A stretch of DNA of 24,356 nucleotides. Origin: Candidatus Thorarchaeota archaeon. Its GTDB lineage: Archaea > Asgardarchaeota > Thorarchaeia > Thorarchaeales > Thorarchaeaceae. Of this stretch, positions 7,051 to 23,803 are shown piece by piece; the first letter of the stretch is position 1, and each line of letters begins with the position of its first letter. The position numbers and the translations under genes are program-made. The notes beneath the pieces were generated by a model, which saw nothing but the letters and a program-made list of their open reading frames with translations, made no database searches and was not told the origin of the DNA. The DNA lies in contig JAWAQK010000006.1 in assembly GCA_038893995.1 (NCBI GenBank), positions 1 to 24,356 of the forward strand. Direction: 5' to 3'.

Positions 7051-8913
7051 TTGCAGGCGTGGGAGTATCTGACGTCCCTGATGGGGCCGACCGATCGTGA
7101 TAGGGCGGCAGCACTAAGTCACCATCTACTGAAATTCATTGATGATTCTGCACGGCTCTGCCAGCCTGAGCGTATCCGTATCTTTGGTGACTCTGCCAGC
7201 GATGTTGACGAGGTCAGACGCATGGCCCTCCGTACTGGCGAGGAGTTCCAGCTGGCGATCGACGGTCACACATGCCATTTTGATGGGTACTTCGACCTGG
7301 CTAGAGACACAGGTAACACACGTTACCTGGTACCCCCAGGCGAATATCTGGATCCGACACTTAACCAGCTGGAACGTGAGGCCGGTCTCAACGAGATGCA
7401 TCGATTGCTCAGAGGCTCGATGGCTGGCAAGGACATGATCGTGCAGTTTCGTTCTCTCGGTCCAGTAGGTTCCACGTTCTCGATGCTTGCGCTTCAGATA
7501 ACGGACTCATACTACGTGGCCCACAGTACGAACATCCTCTACCGGTCTGCCTATAGGGTCTTCGTTGACAGCGAGACTCTCGGTCCCGTCCTTAGAGTGC
7601 TCCATTCTGCAGGACGTACTGAGAATGGTGTTTCAGCTGATGTGGCACACCGTAGGGTCTACATTGACCTGCTCGACGAGACTGTCTATAGCGTCAACAA
7701 CCAGTATGCCGGCAACTCTCTGGGCCTCAAGAAACTGGCCTTTCGTCTGGCAATTCGAAGGGCGCATCGGGAAGGTTGGCTTGCTGAACACATGTTCCTG
7801 ATGGGTGTACATGGTCCTGGCGGTCGTAAGGCATACTTCGCCGGCGCATTTCCCTCTGCTTGTGGTAAGACCAGTACCTGCATGGTACCCGGCGAGAGTG
7901 TGATAGGTGACGATATCTCGTACATCCGGAATGTCGGCGGGGTGACAAGGGCGGTCAACGTGGAACAGGGCATCTTTGGCATCATCCACGGTGTGAGTGA
8001 GGCGCATGATCCGATCATCTTTCGAGCGTTGATGACACCTGGGGAGGTCATCTTCTCGAACGTCCTGGTACATGATGGCACTCCGTACTGGTTGGGGGAC
8101 GGAAGAGAGCATCCCAGTAGTGGTCGTAACTTTGCCGGTGCATGGCGGCCCGGACTGAAGGGACCTGACGGGGCTGAGGTGCCTCTCGCACACGAGAATG
8201 CGAGGTATACAATGGGGCTGTCCAAGCTTGACAATGTGGACCCCGAGTTCAACAGTCCCCAGGGCGTCCCGTTGAGTGCGATACTCTATGGTGGTCGCGA
8301 CAGCGACACGAACGTGCCACTCAGGGAGGCGTTTGACTGGCAGCATGGCGTCATCACTATTGGTGCCTGTCTGGAGTCACAGACGACATCTGCGACTATC
8401 GGGAAGAAGGGTGTACGTGCCTTCCAACCCTTTGCCAACATCGATTTCATATCAATACCTCTGGGAAGGTACATCCTCGACCATCTCAAGTTTGGCGCAG
8501 GGCTGACAAGACCTCCCTCCATCTTCGGTGTAAACTACTTCTTAATCGATTCAGAGGGGCGGTACCTGAATTCGCGTGAAGACAAGAGAGTCTGGCTCAA
8601 GTGGATGGAGCGTCGGATTGCAGGTGAGATGGACGCAATCAGATCCCCTGTTGGATATCTGCCGCTATACTCGGACCTCAGGAGCCTCTTTAGGGTCGTC
8701 TTGGCCAAGGACTACTCACATGCGGACTACGAGATCCAGTTCTCAGTCCGAATAGCACGTCTGTTGGAGAGAAACGAACGGATGAGGACAATATACAGCA
8801 ACATTCGAGAGGTGCCGCGAGAGCTGTTTCTTGAACTGGATGCGGAGAGAGAACGACTACTTAGGGCGCGAGACATGTACGGTGATCTTGCCAGCCCGGA
8901 GTCATTCGTCTGA
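7051..8913 (+). CDS. pckG: Phosphoenolpyruvate carboxykinase (GTP)
   Basis: Motifs YAGNSLGLKKLAFRL, GWLAEHMFLMG, AFPSACGKTST (P-loop), IGDDI, HENARY and GGRDSDT. The TTG start is uncertain. Confidence 0.95.
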   Translation: MQAWEYLTSLMGPTDRDRAAALSHHLLKFIDDSARLCQPERIRIFGDSASDVDEVRRMALRTGEEFQLAIDGHTCHFDGYFDLARDTGNTRYLVPPGEYLDPTLNQLEREAGLNEMHRLLRGSMAGKDMIVQFRSLGPVGSTFSMLALQITDSYYVAHSTNILYRSAYRVFVDSETLGPVLRVLHSAGRTENGVSADVAHRRVYIDLLDETVYSVNNQYAGNSLGLKKLAFRLAIRRAHREGWLAEHMFLMGVHGPGGRKAYFAGAFPSACGKTSTCMVPGESVIGDDISYIRNVGGVTRAVNVEQGIFGIIHGVSEAHDPIIFRALMTPGEVIFSNVLVHDGTPYWLGDGREHPSSGRNFAGAWRPGLKGPDGAEVPLAHENARYTMGLSKLDNVDPEFNSPQGVPLSAILYGGRDSDTNVPLREAFDWQHGVITIGACLESQTTSATIGKKGVRAFQPFANIDFISIPLGRYILDHLKFGAGLTRPPSIFGVNYFLIDSEGRYLNSREDKRVWLKWMERRIAGEMDAIRSPVGYLPLYSDLRSLFRVVLAKDYSHADYEIQFSVRIARLLERNERMRTIYSNIREVPRELFLELDAERERLLRARDMYGDLASPESFV

Positions 8914-11295
8914 GCCCCCTTCGAACCTTCTGACTCTCACTAGGATTGAGTTGAACCCCGGTGTATGACCGAACGCCGTGTGTCGGTCCTCAGTCAAGAC
9001 GTTGACGTTTCCATCGTCATTCCACCACCCATCGGAGAGCCAGATGACTCGTGGGTCGATGTCATTCGTGACCTCAAGACGAATGTCTGGTAGGACTCCA
9101 TGTCTTGACTCGATCGTGACCCTGTCGCCATCACTGAGTCCGAGTGACCTTGCGGTGTCCGGATGCATCCTGACGAACGATCTCCTTCCCCTCACTTCGT
9201 CCCGACATGGCATCCTGATGGGCTGGACGATCACCCCGAAGGGACAGTAGTCAAGCTCGCACTCCCTGCATCCTATGCACAGACTTGGGTCCCAACTCGG
9301 TACCAATAGACTGGTGATTTCCAGAGGGACTGCCAGAGGTCTGCTATCCGATCTGACTGAGAGGCCTCTGACGTGTTCGGTCAGTCTGACCCTCAGTTTT
9401 GCTCGAGCGTTGGTCATGCCTTCTTCCGCCGCGGCGACAATCTGTGCAGCGCTTGGCGGCACGAGGGAGATCGCCTTGTCCGGACACTTCTCGACGCATC
9501 TCTGGCAGGTCGTGCACTGGGCGAAGCTCTTGACTGAACCGCCTGTACTGACTGTGGTGTACTGCGAGTGAAGCCTGTCTCTCAGCCTTCCCGAGATCAT
9601 GATGAGCGGATAGTCCCTGTACAGATCGGGCGTGCTGACAGGACTCTCTGCAGGCTCCTCGTGGAAGGGCAATGGATCGTATCCCATCTCGAGAAGGGTC
9701 CTCGAATACAGCTCGACCTTACCCGATGGTGTGTTGAATACACGGTTGGCAAACGGTATCACCTCTGACTTCGTACGTATTCCCTCGGGATGCTCTATGA
9801 GGCTCTCGAGTGAGATGTGAGCGCATTCCTCTGACCTCAACGCCTCACGAATGAGGTCGAGCTCATCGGCCTGGAAATAGTGACCGAGACCAAGCCTCTC
9901 TGCAATACCACGCCATATGTCGAGTTCGCTCCGGCACTCTCCCACTGGCTCGATCAACTTCGGTGCGTACTGTACGATACGGTGTAGCTCGCTGTACACC
10001 AAGTTGTGATGCTCGAATATGAAGGTGGCTGGCAAGACGATGTCACACATTCGTGCCGTGTCGGTCATCTCAAGATCGATACAGACCTTGAACGGAATTC
10101 TCTTCAATGCCTCAACGGTGAGACCGGTGTTGGGCCACTGAGTGAGCGGGCTTGCTGCCTGGATGACCAACACACGCAGTGGGCAGGTCGTGGAGTTCAT
10201 GATGAGCCGGGGCAAGTAAGTCGCGGACGGTACGACCGGTCTGACAGACTCGTCCAGTAGGTGGTCGAGAGTGACGCCTCGGTTGTTGAAGGGACTGCAG
10301 TCTGATGAGAGGTACTGGAAACCGCCGCCACTGACTCCAAGATAACCACATATTGCGAGGAGACTGTGTACCGCCCTTGCAGCCCAAGTACCGTTCGTGT
10401 AGTGGTTCATTCCAGCCGGGGCCGTCATGATCAGCCCTGGCCCATGCGTAGCAAAGGTCACTGCGATGTCCCGAATGATGCTCGGACTGACCCACGTGAG
10501 ACTACTCACTCGCTGCACGTCATACTCGCGCACTCTCTGACAGTACTCCTCGAAGCCCACGACATACTTCTCCACGAAATCGCGATTCCACAGCCCTCTC
10601 TCTATTATCACGTTGGCGATACCCAGTGCCAGTGCACCATCGGTCCCCGGTCGTATTGTCGTATATATGTGGGCCATCTTTGCATGCGGAGTCCTTCTGG
10701 GGTCGATCACTATCAGCTTGGCACCTCTATCGAGTGCCTCCTGTATCACTCTCTTGCAGTGAAGACTTGACTCGAACTTGTTTGTACCCCATATGACGAG
10801 ACAACGCGAGTTCGCCCAGTCTTTCAACTCATGCGGCGGGAATGGCCCGACGTTGAAACGAGCGCCCTCATATGCTCCCTTGAAGCATATCTCTGATATC
10901 CCCGGGATCATCCTGGTCCCCAGTGCATTTGCAAACCTGGCTGCGTATCTGGGTGCCATACCATCATTTCCCGATCCCGAGTATATCCCGACTGACTGGG
11001 GCCCGAACTCTCGTCTGGCCTCATCTATTCTCTGTGCGATATCGTCCAGGGCCTCGTCCCAAGATATGCGTATGAAGGAGCCATCCGGCTGTCTTCTCAG
11101 TGGATGCTTCAGTCGGTCCCCGTAGTAGGTCCTCATTGCATGGGCGTAGCCCTTAGGACAGCACCTTCCCAGCGTGTAGGGGTGATTTGGGTCTCCAAGT
11201 ATGCGTGTTACTCTGCCATCCTCGATGACTACCTGGTACGCGCATATGTCTGGGCAGTTGAGAGCACAGGCGGAGTACTTGACTTCGCGGGGCAT
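8902..11295 (-). CDS. Mo/W-bisPGD (DMSO reductase superfamily) oxidoreductase catalytic subunit with an inserted 2x[4Fe-4S] ferredoxin module
   Basis: N-terminal Fe-S motif CALNCPDIC...GRCCPKG, RLKHPL, ISWDEALD, IDPRRT, IRPGTDGALALG, TDTARMCDIVLPA and TPSGKVEL. C-terminal MHPDTARSLGLSDGDRV...NVNVLT. No Tat signal. Candidate Cys ligand in EICFKG. SD GGAGGAG upstream. Confidence 0.92.
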   Translation of the reverse strand: MPREVKYSACALNCPDICAYQVVIEDGRVTRILGDPNHPYTLGRCCPKGYAHAMRTYYGDRLKHPLRRQPDGSFIRISWDEALDDIAQRIDEARREFGPQSVGIYSGSGNDGMAPRYAARFANALGTRMIPGISEICFKGAYEGARFNVGPFPPHELKDWANSRCLVIWGTNKFESSLHCKRVIQEALDRGAKLIVIDPRRTPHAKMAHIYTTIRPGTDGALALGIANVIIERGLWNRDFVEKYVVGFEEYCQRVREYDVQRVSSLTWVSPSIIRDIAVTFATHGPGLIMTAPAGMNHYTNGTWAARAVHSLLAICGYLGVSGGGFQYLSSDCSPFNNRGVTLDHLLDESVRPVVPSATYLPRLIMNSTTCPLRVLVIQAASPLTQWPNTGLTVEALKRIPFKVCIDLEMTDTARMCDIVLPATFIFEHHNLVYSELHRIVQYAPKLIEPVGECRSELDIWRGIAERLGLGHYFQADELDLIREALRSEECAHISLESLIEHPEGIRTKSEVIPFANRVFNTPSGKVELYSRTLLEMGYDPLPFHEEPAESPVSTPDLYRDYPLIMISGRLRDRLHSQYTTVSTGGSVKSFAQCTTCQRCVEKCPDKAISLVPPSAAQIVAAAEEGMTNARAKLRVRLTEHVRGLSVRSDSRPLAVPLEITSLLVPSWDPSLCIGCRECELDYCPFGVIVQPIRMPCRDEVRGRRSFVRMHPDTARSLGLSDGDRVTIESRHGVLPDIRLEVTNDIDPRVIWLSDGWWNDDGNVNVLTEDRHTAFGHTPGFNSILVRVRRFEGGSDE

Positions 11296-11373: not shown

Positions 11374-11402
11374 TGATGTACATTCCTGTACATCAATGTA
11401 CT
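11374..11402. promoter_or_regulatory. Three phased TGTACA/TGTACT boxes, matching the TrpY TRP-box consensus
   Basis: TGTACA 11377-11382, TGTACA 11387-11392 and TGTACT 11397-11402, with a 10-bp period and 4-bp spacers. The first two form a perfect 9-bp inverted repeat, TGATGTACA-TTCC-TGTACATCA. They lie directly upstream of the trpB2 leader TATA box. Confidence 0.7.
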
Positions 11403-11410
11403 TAATAGGA

Positions 11411-11424
11411 CAATACTTATAAGG
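11411..11424 (+). promoter_or_regulatory. TATA-box promoter of the trpB2-1 leader transcript
   Basis: CAATACTTATAAGG, with TTATAA at 11417-11422. A near-identical CAATGCTTATAAGA sits at the equivalent position before trpB2-2. Confidence 0.72.
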
Positions 11425-11468
11425 GGGTTCACGGCATCGCCCGGTCGGTCTACCCTGAGGTGATTCGA

Positions 11469-11522
11469 ATGGTGAGCGTGTGTCTGCTCCACTGGTATTG
11501 GGGTCCGAGAGGACCCGTCTAG
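11469..11522 (+). CDS. Trp-containing leader peptide (uORF) of trpB2-1: MVSVCLLHWYWGPRGPV
   Basis: SD GAGGTGA (11457-11463), ATG 11469, two TGG codons (positions 9 and 11) and TAG 11520-11522. A same-length homolog lies upstream of the second trpB2. Confidence 0.75.
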   Translation: MVSVCLLHWYWGPRGPV

Positions 11523-11532
11523 TCAGCTCACC
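11497..11532 (+). repeat. 36-nt sequence repeated exactly at 22299-22334
   Basis: ATTGGGGTCCGAGAGGACCCGTCTAGTCAGCTCACC is present in both trpB2 leaders. Confidence 0.97.
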
Positions 11533-11682
11533 GTCCACCGAGGGTATCTCTTCTGTTTCTCTTGCGCGCTCGGCACCCACTGAGTGGAAGGGCGGATTGA
11601 GCTCTCAGATGTCAGTGGTCTCCGCACGGTACTCCATCAACATCTCAGGACAGACCACCTCAGAACAATGGTGAGATCCGAG

Positions 11683-12993
11683 ATGAAGACAGAATTCACA
11701 CGAGTGATCTTGAACCAAGAAGACCTTCCGAAGAACTATGTGAACATCGTACCGCATCTGAGAAGTCCTCTGCCCCCTCCCATCGATCCTCGCACGTCTC
11801 AGCCGATCGACCCCGAGGCGCTGAAGGCACTCTTTCCTGTCGAATGCATAAGACAGGAGGTGAGTACGGCCAGGGAGATCCGGATACCGGACGAACTCCG
11901 CGAGGCATACCTACAGATAGGACGTCCGACCCCACTCCAGAGAGCCGTGCATCTCGAGGCGGCCCTGAAGACACCAGCTAGGATATACTTCAAGCGAGAG
12001 GACACATCTCCAACTGGGAGCCACAAGCTCAATACAGCATTGGCACAGGCCTACTTCGCATCGAAGGAGGGTACTGAGAGGCTCGCCACGGAGACCGGTG
12101 CAGGGCAATGGGGGAGCGCTGTTGCGTACGCCGCGGCGCACTTCGGTCTGAAGGCCACCATCTACATGGTCAGTGCAAGCTACGAGCAGAAACCCTACCG
12201 AGGCATCATGATGAGGATGTATGGAGCCGATGTGACTCCCTCGCCATCCGACCGTACTGAGGTGGGTCGAAAGATCAGGGCTACTGACCCAAACCATCCC
12301 GGCTCTCTCGGGATAGCCATCAGCGAGGCTCTCGAAGACACCATGAATAGTCCAAACACCAAATACACACTCGGCTCGGTCCTGAATCATGTCCTGCTAC
12401 ATCAGACAGTGATCGGACAGGAGGTCGTCCAGCAGCTCAGGATGATTGGTGAGACTCCCGATGTGATAGTGGGATGTGTCGGCGGTGGTAGCAACTTTGC
12501 AGGCATGAGCTATCCCTTTCTGGCGCGGTCCGAATACCGTGATGTCGATTTCCTGGCCGTGGAACCTGTCGTTTGCGGAAAGATGACTAGGGGAGAGTAT
12601 CGTTACGACTATGGCGATTCTGCTGGCCTGACACCCATGTTGAAGATGCACACGCTCGGGGCAGACTTCACCCCGCCGCGGATTCATGCAGGAGGTCTCA
12701 GGTATCACGGTGTCGCTCCGACCATCAGTGCACTGATACTGGAGGGCCGCATCCGGCCAGTGGCATATGAGCAGGTCGAGGTGCTTGAGGCCGGCCGACT
12801 CTTCGCTCGTTCAGAGGGAATCGTGCCCGCTCCCGAGTCGTCTCACGCCATAAAGGCGGTCATTGATCTTGCCCTCAAGGCCAAGCAGGAGAAGCGGGAG
12901 CGTGTCATCGTGTTCAACCTCTCCGGTCACGGTCACTTCGACATGGCGGCCTACGGCTCTCTGATGGACGGGACGCTCGGCAGCGCAGCCTAA
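11683..12993 (+). CDS. trpB2: Tryptophan synthase beta chain, TrpB2 type (copy 1)
   Basis: PLP lysine motif [38 protein letters not shown], the TrpB2-specific HAGGLRYHG, and [12 protein letters not shown] 11683 follows GGTGAG and aligns with the copy 2 N-terminus; ATG 11668 is an alternative start. Confidence 0.95.
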
Positions 12994-13187
12994 TTTCTCC
13001 CGACATGTGGGCTGAAGGGCCTGTGACAGTCGCTGGGGTCCGCCTTGGGAAACCGGGGTGAACCCCTAATGACTCCTGCTGCGGGAATGTTCTTAATCTG
13101 CCGAGTAGGTCACCGGGGTCAGCAGCTCCGCATCTGTATCTTGTGTCTGAGATTCAGACATGTTCTCAACAGGGAGTGAAAGTCAGG

Positions 13188-22210: not shown

Positions 22211-22224
22211 CAATGCTTATAAGA
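22211..22224 (+). promoter_or_regulatory. TATA-box promoter of the trpB2-2 leader transcript
   Basis: CAATGCTTATAAGA, with TTATAA at 22217-22222; homologous to 11411-11424. Confidence 0.72.
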
Positions 22225-22266: not shown

Positions 22267-22486
22267 ACAGATGGTGCGAGTTGGTCTACGCCACTGTCAT
22301 TGGGGTCCGAGAGGACCCGTCTAGTCAGCTCACCATCTGTCGCCAGGACCAATTCTCATTCTGCCTCGCACATTCTGAGCTCTGGAGTAGTCTCCGGTCC
22401 AGACTCATTCTTCGCACCCAGTCTTGGGACTGGACATCCTGCGGACTCGGGAAGGACCCTCCCAGAACAGGAAGTGAAAATAAGAC
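22267..22486 (+). promoter_or_regulatory. Structured 5' leader / candidate attenuator of trpB2-2
   Basis: GAGA-loop hairpin 22303-22318; helices 22267-22276/22331-22340, 22327-22332/22376-22381 and 22376-22386/22398-22407, the last followed by TTCTTC. Confidence 0.65.
22271..22324 (+). CDS. Trp-containing leader peptide (uORF) of trpB2-2: MVRVGLRHCHWGPRGPV
   Basis: SD GAGGAG (22257-22262), ATG 22271, TGG at codon 11 and TAG 22322-22324. Same length and frame as 11469-11522. Confidence 0.72.
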   Translation: MVRVGLRHCHWGPRGPV

Positions 22487-23803
22487 ATGACCAGACCAAT
22501 ACGAGTTACACTTGGCATTGAAGACTTACCAAGAAGCTATGTGAATATCGTACCATACCTGAGGGAACCGCTTCCTCCCGCAGTTGACCCAGTGACATCC
22601 GAACCTGTCACTGTGGAGAGACTGTCTGCAGTATTCCCCACTGAGTGTGCGAGGCAGGAGTTGTGTACAGACCCGGAGATACCGATTCCAGAAGAACTCC
22701 GTGAGTCCTACATACAGATAGGTCGACCAACGCCCCTCCAGAGAGCAGTCCACCTCGAGCAGAAGCTCAGGACCCCGGCAAGGATCTATTTCAAGAGGGA
22801 AGACCTGTCTCCAACGGGGAGTCATAAGCTCAACACTGCTCTTGCACAGGCGTACTTTGCGCTGAAAGACGGTGCACAGCGCCTCACTGCAGAGACGGGA
22901 GCCGGACAATGGGGCTGTGCCGTCGCTCTTGCTGCATCACACTTTGGTCTTAGTGCCTCGATCTATATGGTGCGGACAAGCTTTGAGCAAAAGCCCTACA
23001 GGACATTCATGATGAGGATGTATGGTGCAGAAGTCATCCAGTCTCCATCGGAACTGACTGAGTCCGGCAAGAGGGTCCGTGCGAATTCCCCTGAACATCC
23101 CGGATCCATCGGCATTGCCATCAGCGAGGCCGTCGAAGACACGCTACACAGTCCTGGTACCAAGTACGCAAACGGTTCTGTGATGAACCACGTACTCCTT
23201 CACCAGACTGTCATAGGCCAGGAAGTGGTTCAACAACTGAGGAAGGTCGATGAGACGCCAGATGCAGTCGTGGGATGTGTGGGAGGCGGCAGCAACTTCG
23301 CAGGGATAAGCTATCCCATGATGGTCAGACCTGAATACAGAGATGTCAGCTTCATTGCGGTTGAACCTGATGCGTGCAATAAGATGACGAGAGGCGAGTA
23401 CCGGTATGACTTCATCGACTCAGCTGGTCTGCTCCCAAGGCTGAAGATGCACACACTCGGTGCAGACTTCACGCCAAGGCGAATACATGCGGGTGGACTC
23501 AGATATCACGGTGTGTCGCCCACGGTCAGCGTCCTCATCAATGAGCGACGAGTTCATCCCGTCGCCTATGACCAGGTGGCTGTCCTAGAGGCTGGCCGGC
23601 TCTTTGCCCAGACAGAGGGGATCGTCCCCGCTCCTGAGTCTTCCCACGCAATAAGAGCAGCCATTGACCTTGCGACTGCGGCTCGAAGAGATGACAGAGA
23701 GATGGTCATTGTCTTCAATCTCTCTGGTCATGGCCATTTTGACATGGGTGCCTATGGTATGCTCATGGATGGTGCACTGGCCATGCCCCCGCTCGCCGCA
23801 TGA
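22487..23803 (+). CDS. trpB2: Tryptophan synthase beta chain, TrpB2 type (copy 2, divergent)
   Basis: Motifs [39 protein letters not shown] and NLSGHGHFD; colinear with copy 1. Confidence 0.95.
   Translation: MTRPIRVTLGIEDLPRSYVNIVPYLREPLPPAVDPVTSEPVTVERLSAVFPTECARQELCTDPEIPIPEELRESYIQIGRPTPLQRAVHLEQKLRTPARIYFKREDLSPTGSHKLNTALAQAYFALKDGAQRLTAETGAGQWGCAVALAASHFGLSASIYMVRTSFEQKPYRTFMMRMYGAEVIQSPSELTESGKRVRANSPEHPGSIGIAISEAVEDTLHSPGTKYANGSVMNHVLLHQTVIGQEVVQQLRKVDETPDAVVGCVGGGSNFAGISYPMMVRPEYRDVSFIAVEPDACNKMTRGEYRYDFIDSAGLLPRLKMHTLGADFTPRRIHAGGLRYHGVSPTVSVLINERRVHPVAYDQVAVLEAGRLFAQTEGIVPAPESSHAIRAAIDLATAARRDDREMVIVFNLSGHGHFDMGAYGMLMDGALAMPPLAA

Follow-up and report, generated by a model that had tools for sequence, protein, structure and literature searches.

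The window analysed is the whole 24,356-nt stretch at positions 1 to 24,356 of contig JAWAQK010000006.1 from a Candidatus Thorarchaeota archaeon. It carries two genes of the TrpB2 type, and about 150 nt upstream of each lies the same 36-nt block. The features of the two loci are the following.

11377-11401 (+), TGTACA repeat boxes upstream of the TATA-like box, a candidate operator; lost in copy 2
11416-11423 (+), TATA-like box; the same octamer is at 22216-22223 in copy 2
11457-11464 (+), Shine-Dalgarno (SD) sequence of uORF1
11469-11522 (+), uORF1 of copy 1, 17 codons with two Trp codons
11474-11482 (+), SD-like element inside uORF1, in a register 11 nt before the P-site codon
11489-11495 (+), conserved heptamer, the proposed frame-switch site; C-CAA-UGG in the family, C-CAC-UGG here
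11492-11674 (+), uORF2 of copy 1 in the -1 frame, 60 codons, its stop 8 nt before the trpB2 start
11497-11532 (+), 36-nt block of copy 1, by sequence comparison: spacer, hairpin, uORF1 stop and 10-nt tail
11501-11516 (+), hairpin of copy 1, by folding and covariation: five conserved base pairs, six here, with a loop that varies in the family
11545-11563 (+), U/C-rich tract 3' of the uORF1 stop, a candidate zone of premature termination
11683-12993 (+), trpB2 copy 1, by homology
22271-22324 (+), uORF1 of copy 2; the conserved Trp codon is UGU and the second UGG is kept
22291-22297 (+), heptamer of copy 2, C-CAC-UGU
22294-22521 (+), uORF2 of copy 2, 75 codons, overlapping the trpB2 start
22299-22334 (+), 36-nt block of copy 2, identical to copy 1 by sequence comparison
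22303-22318 (+), hairpin of copy 2, by identity and family comparison
22487-23803 (+), trpB2 copy 2, a fast-evolving sister paralogue, by homology and tree

An earlier note on this DNA had reported that the two blocks are identical and that the trpB2 coding regions differ at many positions, and both observations hold. The blocks agree letter for letter and form the maximal identical run between the two sites, whereas the proteins are 74% identical, the four-fold sites are saturated (26% identical) and the longest identical run common to the two genes is 19 nt. With genes so diverged, a 36-nt identity by chance is excluded. An assembly artefact is unlikely because an independent run (SRR27730018) yields a k=31 unitig whose first base is precisely 11503, the point at which a genuine 36-nt repeat breaks the graph, so that the identity, or at least its 3' part, is present in the reads. 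The two paralogues are sisters in the tree (100/100), with branches of 0.48 for copy 2 and 0.13 for copy 1, and the promoter, uORF and leader were duplicated together with the gene.

Copy 2 differs from copy 1 in several other ways. Its conserved sensor codon has become UGU (Cys, 22295-22297), its TGTACA boxes are gone, and 19 positions of its protein that are otherwise conserved have changed, several of them around residues 298-331. This single case may represent a change of function or of the amino acid that is sensed. No trpA or trpE family member was found in the source genome (91% complete), which is consistent with a stand-alone TrpB2 and is no proof that these genes are absent. Elsewhere in the window, a molybdopterin oxidoreductase gene at 8902-11295 (-), with a two-cluster ferredoxin-like insert near the C-terminus of its product, is divergent from trpB2 copy 1. 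At 13020-13085 (+), in the interval that separates trpB2 copy 1 from a GNAT-domain gene of 1,100 aa, is a motif resembling a fluoride riboswitch (RF01734; its 24 bits fall short of the gathering score, 34); its pseudoknot strands and conserved 3' motif are present.

When trpB2 loci were extracted from the genomes of the class, the same leader was found upstream of 56 trpB2 genes, counting both copies here, in 13 genera of the source organism's family. The 36-mer is the 3' part of this leader. The leader is absent before one more divergent trpB2 of the family and before the trpB2 genes of other families. A search of 87 genomes with a covariance model returned 59 strong matches, of which 57 are upstream of trpB2 (one of these broken) and two are at contig ends, in genomes whose trpB2 comes without upstream DNA. 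There was no convincing match outside the family among 151 genomes of the phylum (best E ~1e-3), a degenerate-pattern search of contigs returned two bacterial matches that were taken as chance, and no Rfam family matched at the site. The 36-mer itself has no third copy in the genome (2.33 Mb) when up to 10 mismatches are allowed, and no exact or 3-mismatch match beyond the source genome among the 87 genomes of the class. It is therefore not invariant family-wide: the word "invariant" used for it in the earlier note is right for the two paralogues, and across the family identity averages ~19-28 of 36 positions at comparable depth. The same note had named a dispersed repeat or MITE end as what would overturn a regulatory role. 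Beyond the exact duplication nothing speaks for such a repeat, whose probability we consider negligible given two copies in the genome and the specificity for trpB2, since all 57 strong matches that can be placed precede this gene.

Variation on the leader and its surroundings was also seen. A TGTACR-type box is present in 53 of the 56 leaders, and the TGTACA repeats at 11377-11401 resemble the TRP boxes of TrpY. One degenerate leader (L101, G013:C167:8378-8499), in which uORF1 stops one codon after Trp, is the only one with a short second frame; it precedes a frameshifted trpB2, which points to decay or an assembly error. Upstream of trpB2 in family f3 (L029, L030, L032) there is a different leader, whose uORF encodes Met-Pro-Trp and which has an ORF of ~45 codons in the +1 frame, ending in four Trp codons. 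At the f7 loci (L028, L031) a gene that looks regulator-like by eye is divergent from trpB2, with TGTACA-like boxes between the two and no long leader.

The first reading frame of the leader is short. An in-frame ATG or GTG occurs 6-9 codons upstream of the conserved site in 56 of 56 leaders, and the site itself, the heptamer just upstream of the 36-nt block, is the invariant stretch of the family, with CAA in 54/56 and UGG in 55/56. The source genome is an outlier, having CAC in both copies and UGU in copy 2. Read in the -1 frame, the heptamer gives CCA followed by AUG (54 of 56) or the near-cognate CUG (the other two). The Trp codon from which the earlier note started, UGG at 11499-11501, is not the conserved one; it is present in only 13 of the 56 leaders, and the conserved codon lies two codons upstream of it. 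No leader has a tandem WW, and there is a single conserved UGG. A dual constraint on peptide and RNA had also been proposed. The RNA and the reading frame bear this out and the peptide residues, which are not conserved, do not; as judged from the leader alignment, the coding constraint in uORF1 is on the frame and not on the residues. The 36-mer is under a triple constraint, namely the frame and stop of uORF1, the open -1 frame and the stem.

The hairpin GGGUCC-GAGA-GGACCC folds as it had been drawn, with a 6-bp stem and a GAGA loop. The first stem base is the final base of the UGG at 11499-11501, and the stop codon follows the hairpin. Five stem pairs are kept in 53-55 of 55 sequences and two-sided changes occur at four of the six pairs, a result matched by 0 of 500 shuffles and by no slid register. 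By the covariation of these sequences the hairpin is real. Its support is comparative, since single-sequence folding z-scores are unremarkable (-1.4 for the 36-mer). Conservation does not extend to the GNRA cap, seen in 4 of 50 hairpins and 3 of 13 genera; the GAGA loop likewise recurs in 3 of 13 genera. Among the 50 hairpins there are 23 different central tetramers, the loop length ranges from 3 to 6 nt, and one loop contains a stop codon. Longer hairpins (19 or 22 nt versus 16) have gained 3 or 6 nt only, and the frame is always kept.

The stem starts 5 nt after the conserved UGG in 53 of 56 leaders and 6 nt after it in three, and with that UGG in the A site the stem start is 11 nt after the first P-site base. 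This geometry, for which the E. coli ribosome was used, fits the suggestion in the earlier note of a ribosome roadblock at a single Trp codon. With E. coli ribosomes the dnaX and HIV stem-loops hinder A-site tRNA binding at the 11-nt spacing (PMC7282821), and truncation of a stem to 6 bp weakens the effect without removing it, the loop sequence not being critical (PMC8861025).

A second open frame spans the rest of the leader. The -1 frame is open from the heptamer across the ~190-nt leader in 56/56 sequences and all 13 genera, with 0 stops in 1,959 interior codons, where the two other frames have 95 and 118. The product of the per-genus shuffle probabilities is 1e-8.9, a value that is overstated as the genera are related. 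Because of upstream stops in the -1 frame, the point of entry can lie no more than 2 codons before the site; on the other side it is bounded by a uORF1 stop that is found 5 codons after Trp. Copy 2 has no ATG, GTG or TTG near the entry. In 49 of 56 leaders uORF2 stops between -14 and +17 relative to the trpB2 start, 15 of them with a 4-nt AUGA/UUGA overlap. Such an overlap is typical of termination-reinitiation (TeRe), which has been demonstrated in archaea (PMC6728339). A functional small protein was considered as the product of uORF2 and rejected, as substitutions are even by codon position (67/69/67, compared with 56/33/302 in trpB2). These even substitutions, together with single-base indels between close relatives that lie mostly near the far end, indicate that uORF2 is selected for openness and end point only. 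An antisense ORF was rejected as the cause of the open frame because the antisense frame is not open.

Inside uORF1 there is an SD-like element whose pairing was evaluated with the anti-SD of the source genome's own 16S rRNA. The register to the P-site codon is 11 in 42 of 55 leaders and 9-11 in 54 of 55, whereas true starts in the same leaders have registers of 7-9. The mean pairing energy is -7.1 kcal/mol versus a background of -3.9 kcal/mol; the duplex contains a bulge, the register was measured differently from the published metric, and other pairings of these bases within the leader are also possible. A stretched SD with a spacing of 9-14 nt is a known stimulator of -1 frameshifting (PMC5009743). 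The site combines three elements of canonical programmed -1 frameshifting (-1 PRF): a 3' stem-loop 5-9 nt downstream, an internal SD 9-14 nt upstream and an open -1 frame.

A leader with the same two-frame layout was found before the his operon (G000:C10:54321-54353 (-), L116, L127-L141), where it has one His codon. The -1 frame of these leaders has 0 stops in 327 codons versus 24 and 23 in the other frames, with no conserved start. In three genomes hisG is an in-frame continuation of the second frame, which therefore cannot be inhibitory, and the sign of the switch would be activating. The his leaders come without an equally clear hairpin and have an SD register of 6. A repeated UUCA-Y word, 19 nt apart, was observed in them, and TGTACA repeats are also upstream of several.

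We propose that the 36-nt block is the 3' core of a Trp sensor read by the ribosome, in which a Trp-starved ribosome shifts -1 and so reaches trpB2; on the comparative evidence we give this reading an even chance. When Trp-tRNA is plentiful, the ribosome would read UGG, melt the hairpin and stop 9 codons later. The U/C-rich remainder of the leader (in the family the pyrimidine peak is at +60 to +84) would then be left bare, trpB2 would lose coupling and the transcript would perhaps be terminated early. The bare RNA may be exposed to aCPSF1, which is encoded in the genome; the exclusion of aCPSF1 by a coupled ribosome is itself only a proposal (PMC8116511). When Trp-tRNA is scarce, the ribosome would wait with UGG in the A site; decoding would be further delayed by the hairpin, located at the mRNA entry channel, and the stretched internal SD would pull backwards. 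Some ribosomes would then shift -1, translate uORF2 and restart on trpB2. The wider claim, which is tentative and somewhat less probable than an even chance, is that these Asgard archaea sense single amino acids by programmed -1 frameshifting at one starved codon, using an internal SD, an entry-channel hairpin and a disposable bridge ORF to the biosynthetic gene, with the two-frame design serving both trpB2 and the his operon. The weak point of the frameshift model is poor tRNA re-pairing at the Trp and His sites. The heptamer is not a canonical X XXY YYZ slippery site; P-site re-pairing from CAA to CCA keeps two of three pairs, CAC to CCA in the source genome keeps only one, and the His site keeps none. 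Hungry-codon slippage has been reported to be independent of a stimulatory element (PMC8211752). In copy 2, where the conserved UGG is lost, the hairpin would already be inside the ribosome at the UGG that remains.

How else could ribosomes enter the second frame? The main rival keeps the two-ORF sensor and has uORF2 entered by initiation. The stalled ribosome would drop its peptidyl-tRNA of 7-9 residues, or be rescued, and restart at the overlapping AUG (CUG here) 2 nt from the P site; de novo initiation controlled by uORF1 traffic and the hairpin is a variant. We consider this rather unlikely. It explains directly the AUG that occupies the -1 codon in nearly all leaders, it suits the poor re-pairing, and in the distant f3 leaders the second ORF begins at its own AUG just after the Trp codon. 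The start codons themselves raise a difficulty, as a synonymous CAA to CAG change, which would give a usable GUG start, is never seen and the sole change that is seen gives CUG. To the overlapping AUG the SD register is 13, whereas real starts have 7-9, and one of the his leaders, which have no conserved start, carries a stop codon two codons upstream of the site and lacks a start codon over a run of 37 codons. De novo initiation would moreover be blocked by the stalled ribosome, which gives the wrong sign.

A classical attenuator with alternative hairpins is less likely again. The hairpin would act as an RNA polymerase pause site and synchroniser, as the earlier note had also considered, the stalled ribosome would select 1:2 versus 2:3 helices, and uORF2 would be incidental. 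Alternative pairings do exist: the uORF1 start or sequence further downstream is a partner for the tail of the block in the source genome, and in the family UGG can pair with YYA just 3' of the stem (54, 54 and 51 of 55) or alternatively with CCA/CUA located 15 nt further on, where one flanking pair covaries. There is also the pyrimidine-rich tract downstream. The RNAalifold consensus, however, shows the hairpin only, copy 1 has no hairpin-U terminator, and the zero stops in one frame and the clustering of uORF2 stops at trpB2 are left unexplained. Sequestration of the trpB2 SD was rejected because its pairing (0.51) is not above the control (0.58). The bacterial elemental pause consensus is G-10, Y-1 and G+1, with a hairpin ~11 nt before in class I pauses. 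At 11 nt the leaders match this bacterial consensus at G-11 (0.84) and Y-1 (0.90) only, G-10 being 0.00 and G+1 0.13. The alternative helices may still serve as auxiliary parts. It is very improbable that the GNRA hairpin is a site for a protein or ligand, riboswitch-like or in a tertiary contact, or that G-P-R-G-P is an arrest peptide. The recurrence of the GAGA loop and a possible internal loop formed by conserved bases flanking the stem could be read in favour of a binding site, and the R-G-P residues resemble known arrest motifs. The freedom of the loop in sequence and length argues against both, as do the freely variable peptide and the lack of an Rfam match. A GNRA recognition element was accordingly rejected, as was an arrest peptide of the TnaC/SecM type, the residues after Trp being variable and one leader stopping in the loop.

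The perfect identity of the two blocks is a separate matter. A short recent gene conversion between the paralogues, 10.8 kb apart, over a functional element would account for it; this is compatible with the other readings, and we put it only slightly short of an even chance. Among 1,017 pairs with saturated four-fold sites only one is identical at 36/36, and the mean is 19.6. At tree distances of 0.2-0.4 the mean is 28 and the maximum 34, and the probability from independent columns is ~4e-5. Similarity in the 5' flank is below expectation (20/28 versus 26), and the flanks drop sharply. Copy 2 is otherwise relaxed, with a branch three times longer and with the boxes and the conserved UGG lost. 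Selection is suggested instead by the coincidence of the block with the functional core, by extra lineage-specific pairings of its tail and by the slow evolution of this variant, the first 26 nt of which match at 24/26 in two distant genera. No sister lineage with both paralogues was found, the searches giving only near-identical assemblies of copy 1. The identity exceeds the conservation of the family and may reflect constraint plus, possibly, conversion. Recent conversion, the other condition that the earlier note had set against a function, is a live explanation of the 36/36 match and does not dispose of the element, as the evidence for function is the family comparison and the identity should not be used as such.

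The leader shares features with several known systems. Like the bacterial leader-peptide attenuators (E. coli trpL, RF00513; hisL, RF00514), it has a short uORF with a cognate codon before a biosynthetic gene and a hairpin inside the leader, and the sensing by ribosome stalling that is proposed here is also theirs. It differs from trpL in having one conserved Trp codon and no run, no hairpin-U terminator, no conserved 2:3/3:4 set and no match to the Rfam Trp_leader, and ribosomes appear, as its output, to enter a second open frame that is coupled to the gene. With the dnaX-type -1 cassette it has in common a stretched SD, seven conserved bases across the P and A codons and a stem 5 nt later. 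Here, in contrast, the heptamer is not X XXY YYZ, the stem is short, the product is disposable and the A-site codon is that of the sensed amino acid. In RF2 autoregulation, antizyme and the ketolide-induced ermCL shift, slow A-site decoding competes with a change of frame, and in ermCL translation of the spacer in the new frame turns on the next gene (PMC5009743). The trigger here, unlike in those frameshifts, would be the lack of one aminoacyl-tRNA. According to a 2016 review there was no known hungry-codon shift that gives a starvation-specific functional product (PMC5009743), and a 2021 review lists one chromosomal case of -1 PRF in archaea (PMC8211752). The case of Saccharolobus solfataricus fucA1 is alike in being an archaeal -1 shift with a 3' stem-loop, but it uses a canonical A-rich slippery site to join two enzyme halves and is neither a leader nor an amino-acid sensor (PMC8211752). 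Archaeal trp genes are also controlled through TrpY/TRP-box and Tar, which likewise involve Trp-pathway genes with promoter-proximal boxes (PMC6737238); TrpY and Tar are DNA-binding regulators, whereas the 36-mer is transcribed and translated.

A literature search that covered few subscription papers found no description of ribosome-mediated amino-acid sensing by an archaeal leader ORF, nor of a hungry-codon frameshift as a selected sensor. New in this work are the covariation of the hairpin and the freedom of its loop, the 11-nt register, the register of the internal SD, the finding that uORF2 is not selected as a protein, and the analysis of the paralogues. For mutagenesis, the hairpin geometry singles out the stem and how far it lies from the Trp codon as the features that matter, and not the loop. 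If the proposal is true, the leader is a compact 60-nt cassette that could be tested in an archaeal host or lysate, and frameshifting would have a further regulatory role, in the prokaryotic lineage nearest to the eukaryotes. Even if uORF2 is entered by restart, the leader would be an overlapping-uORF starvation switch in an archaeon.
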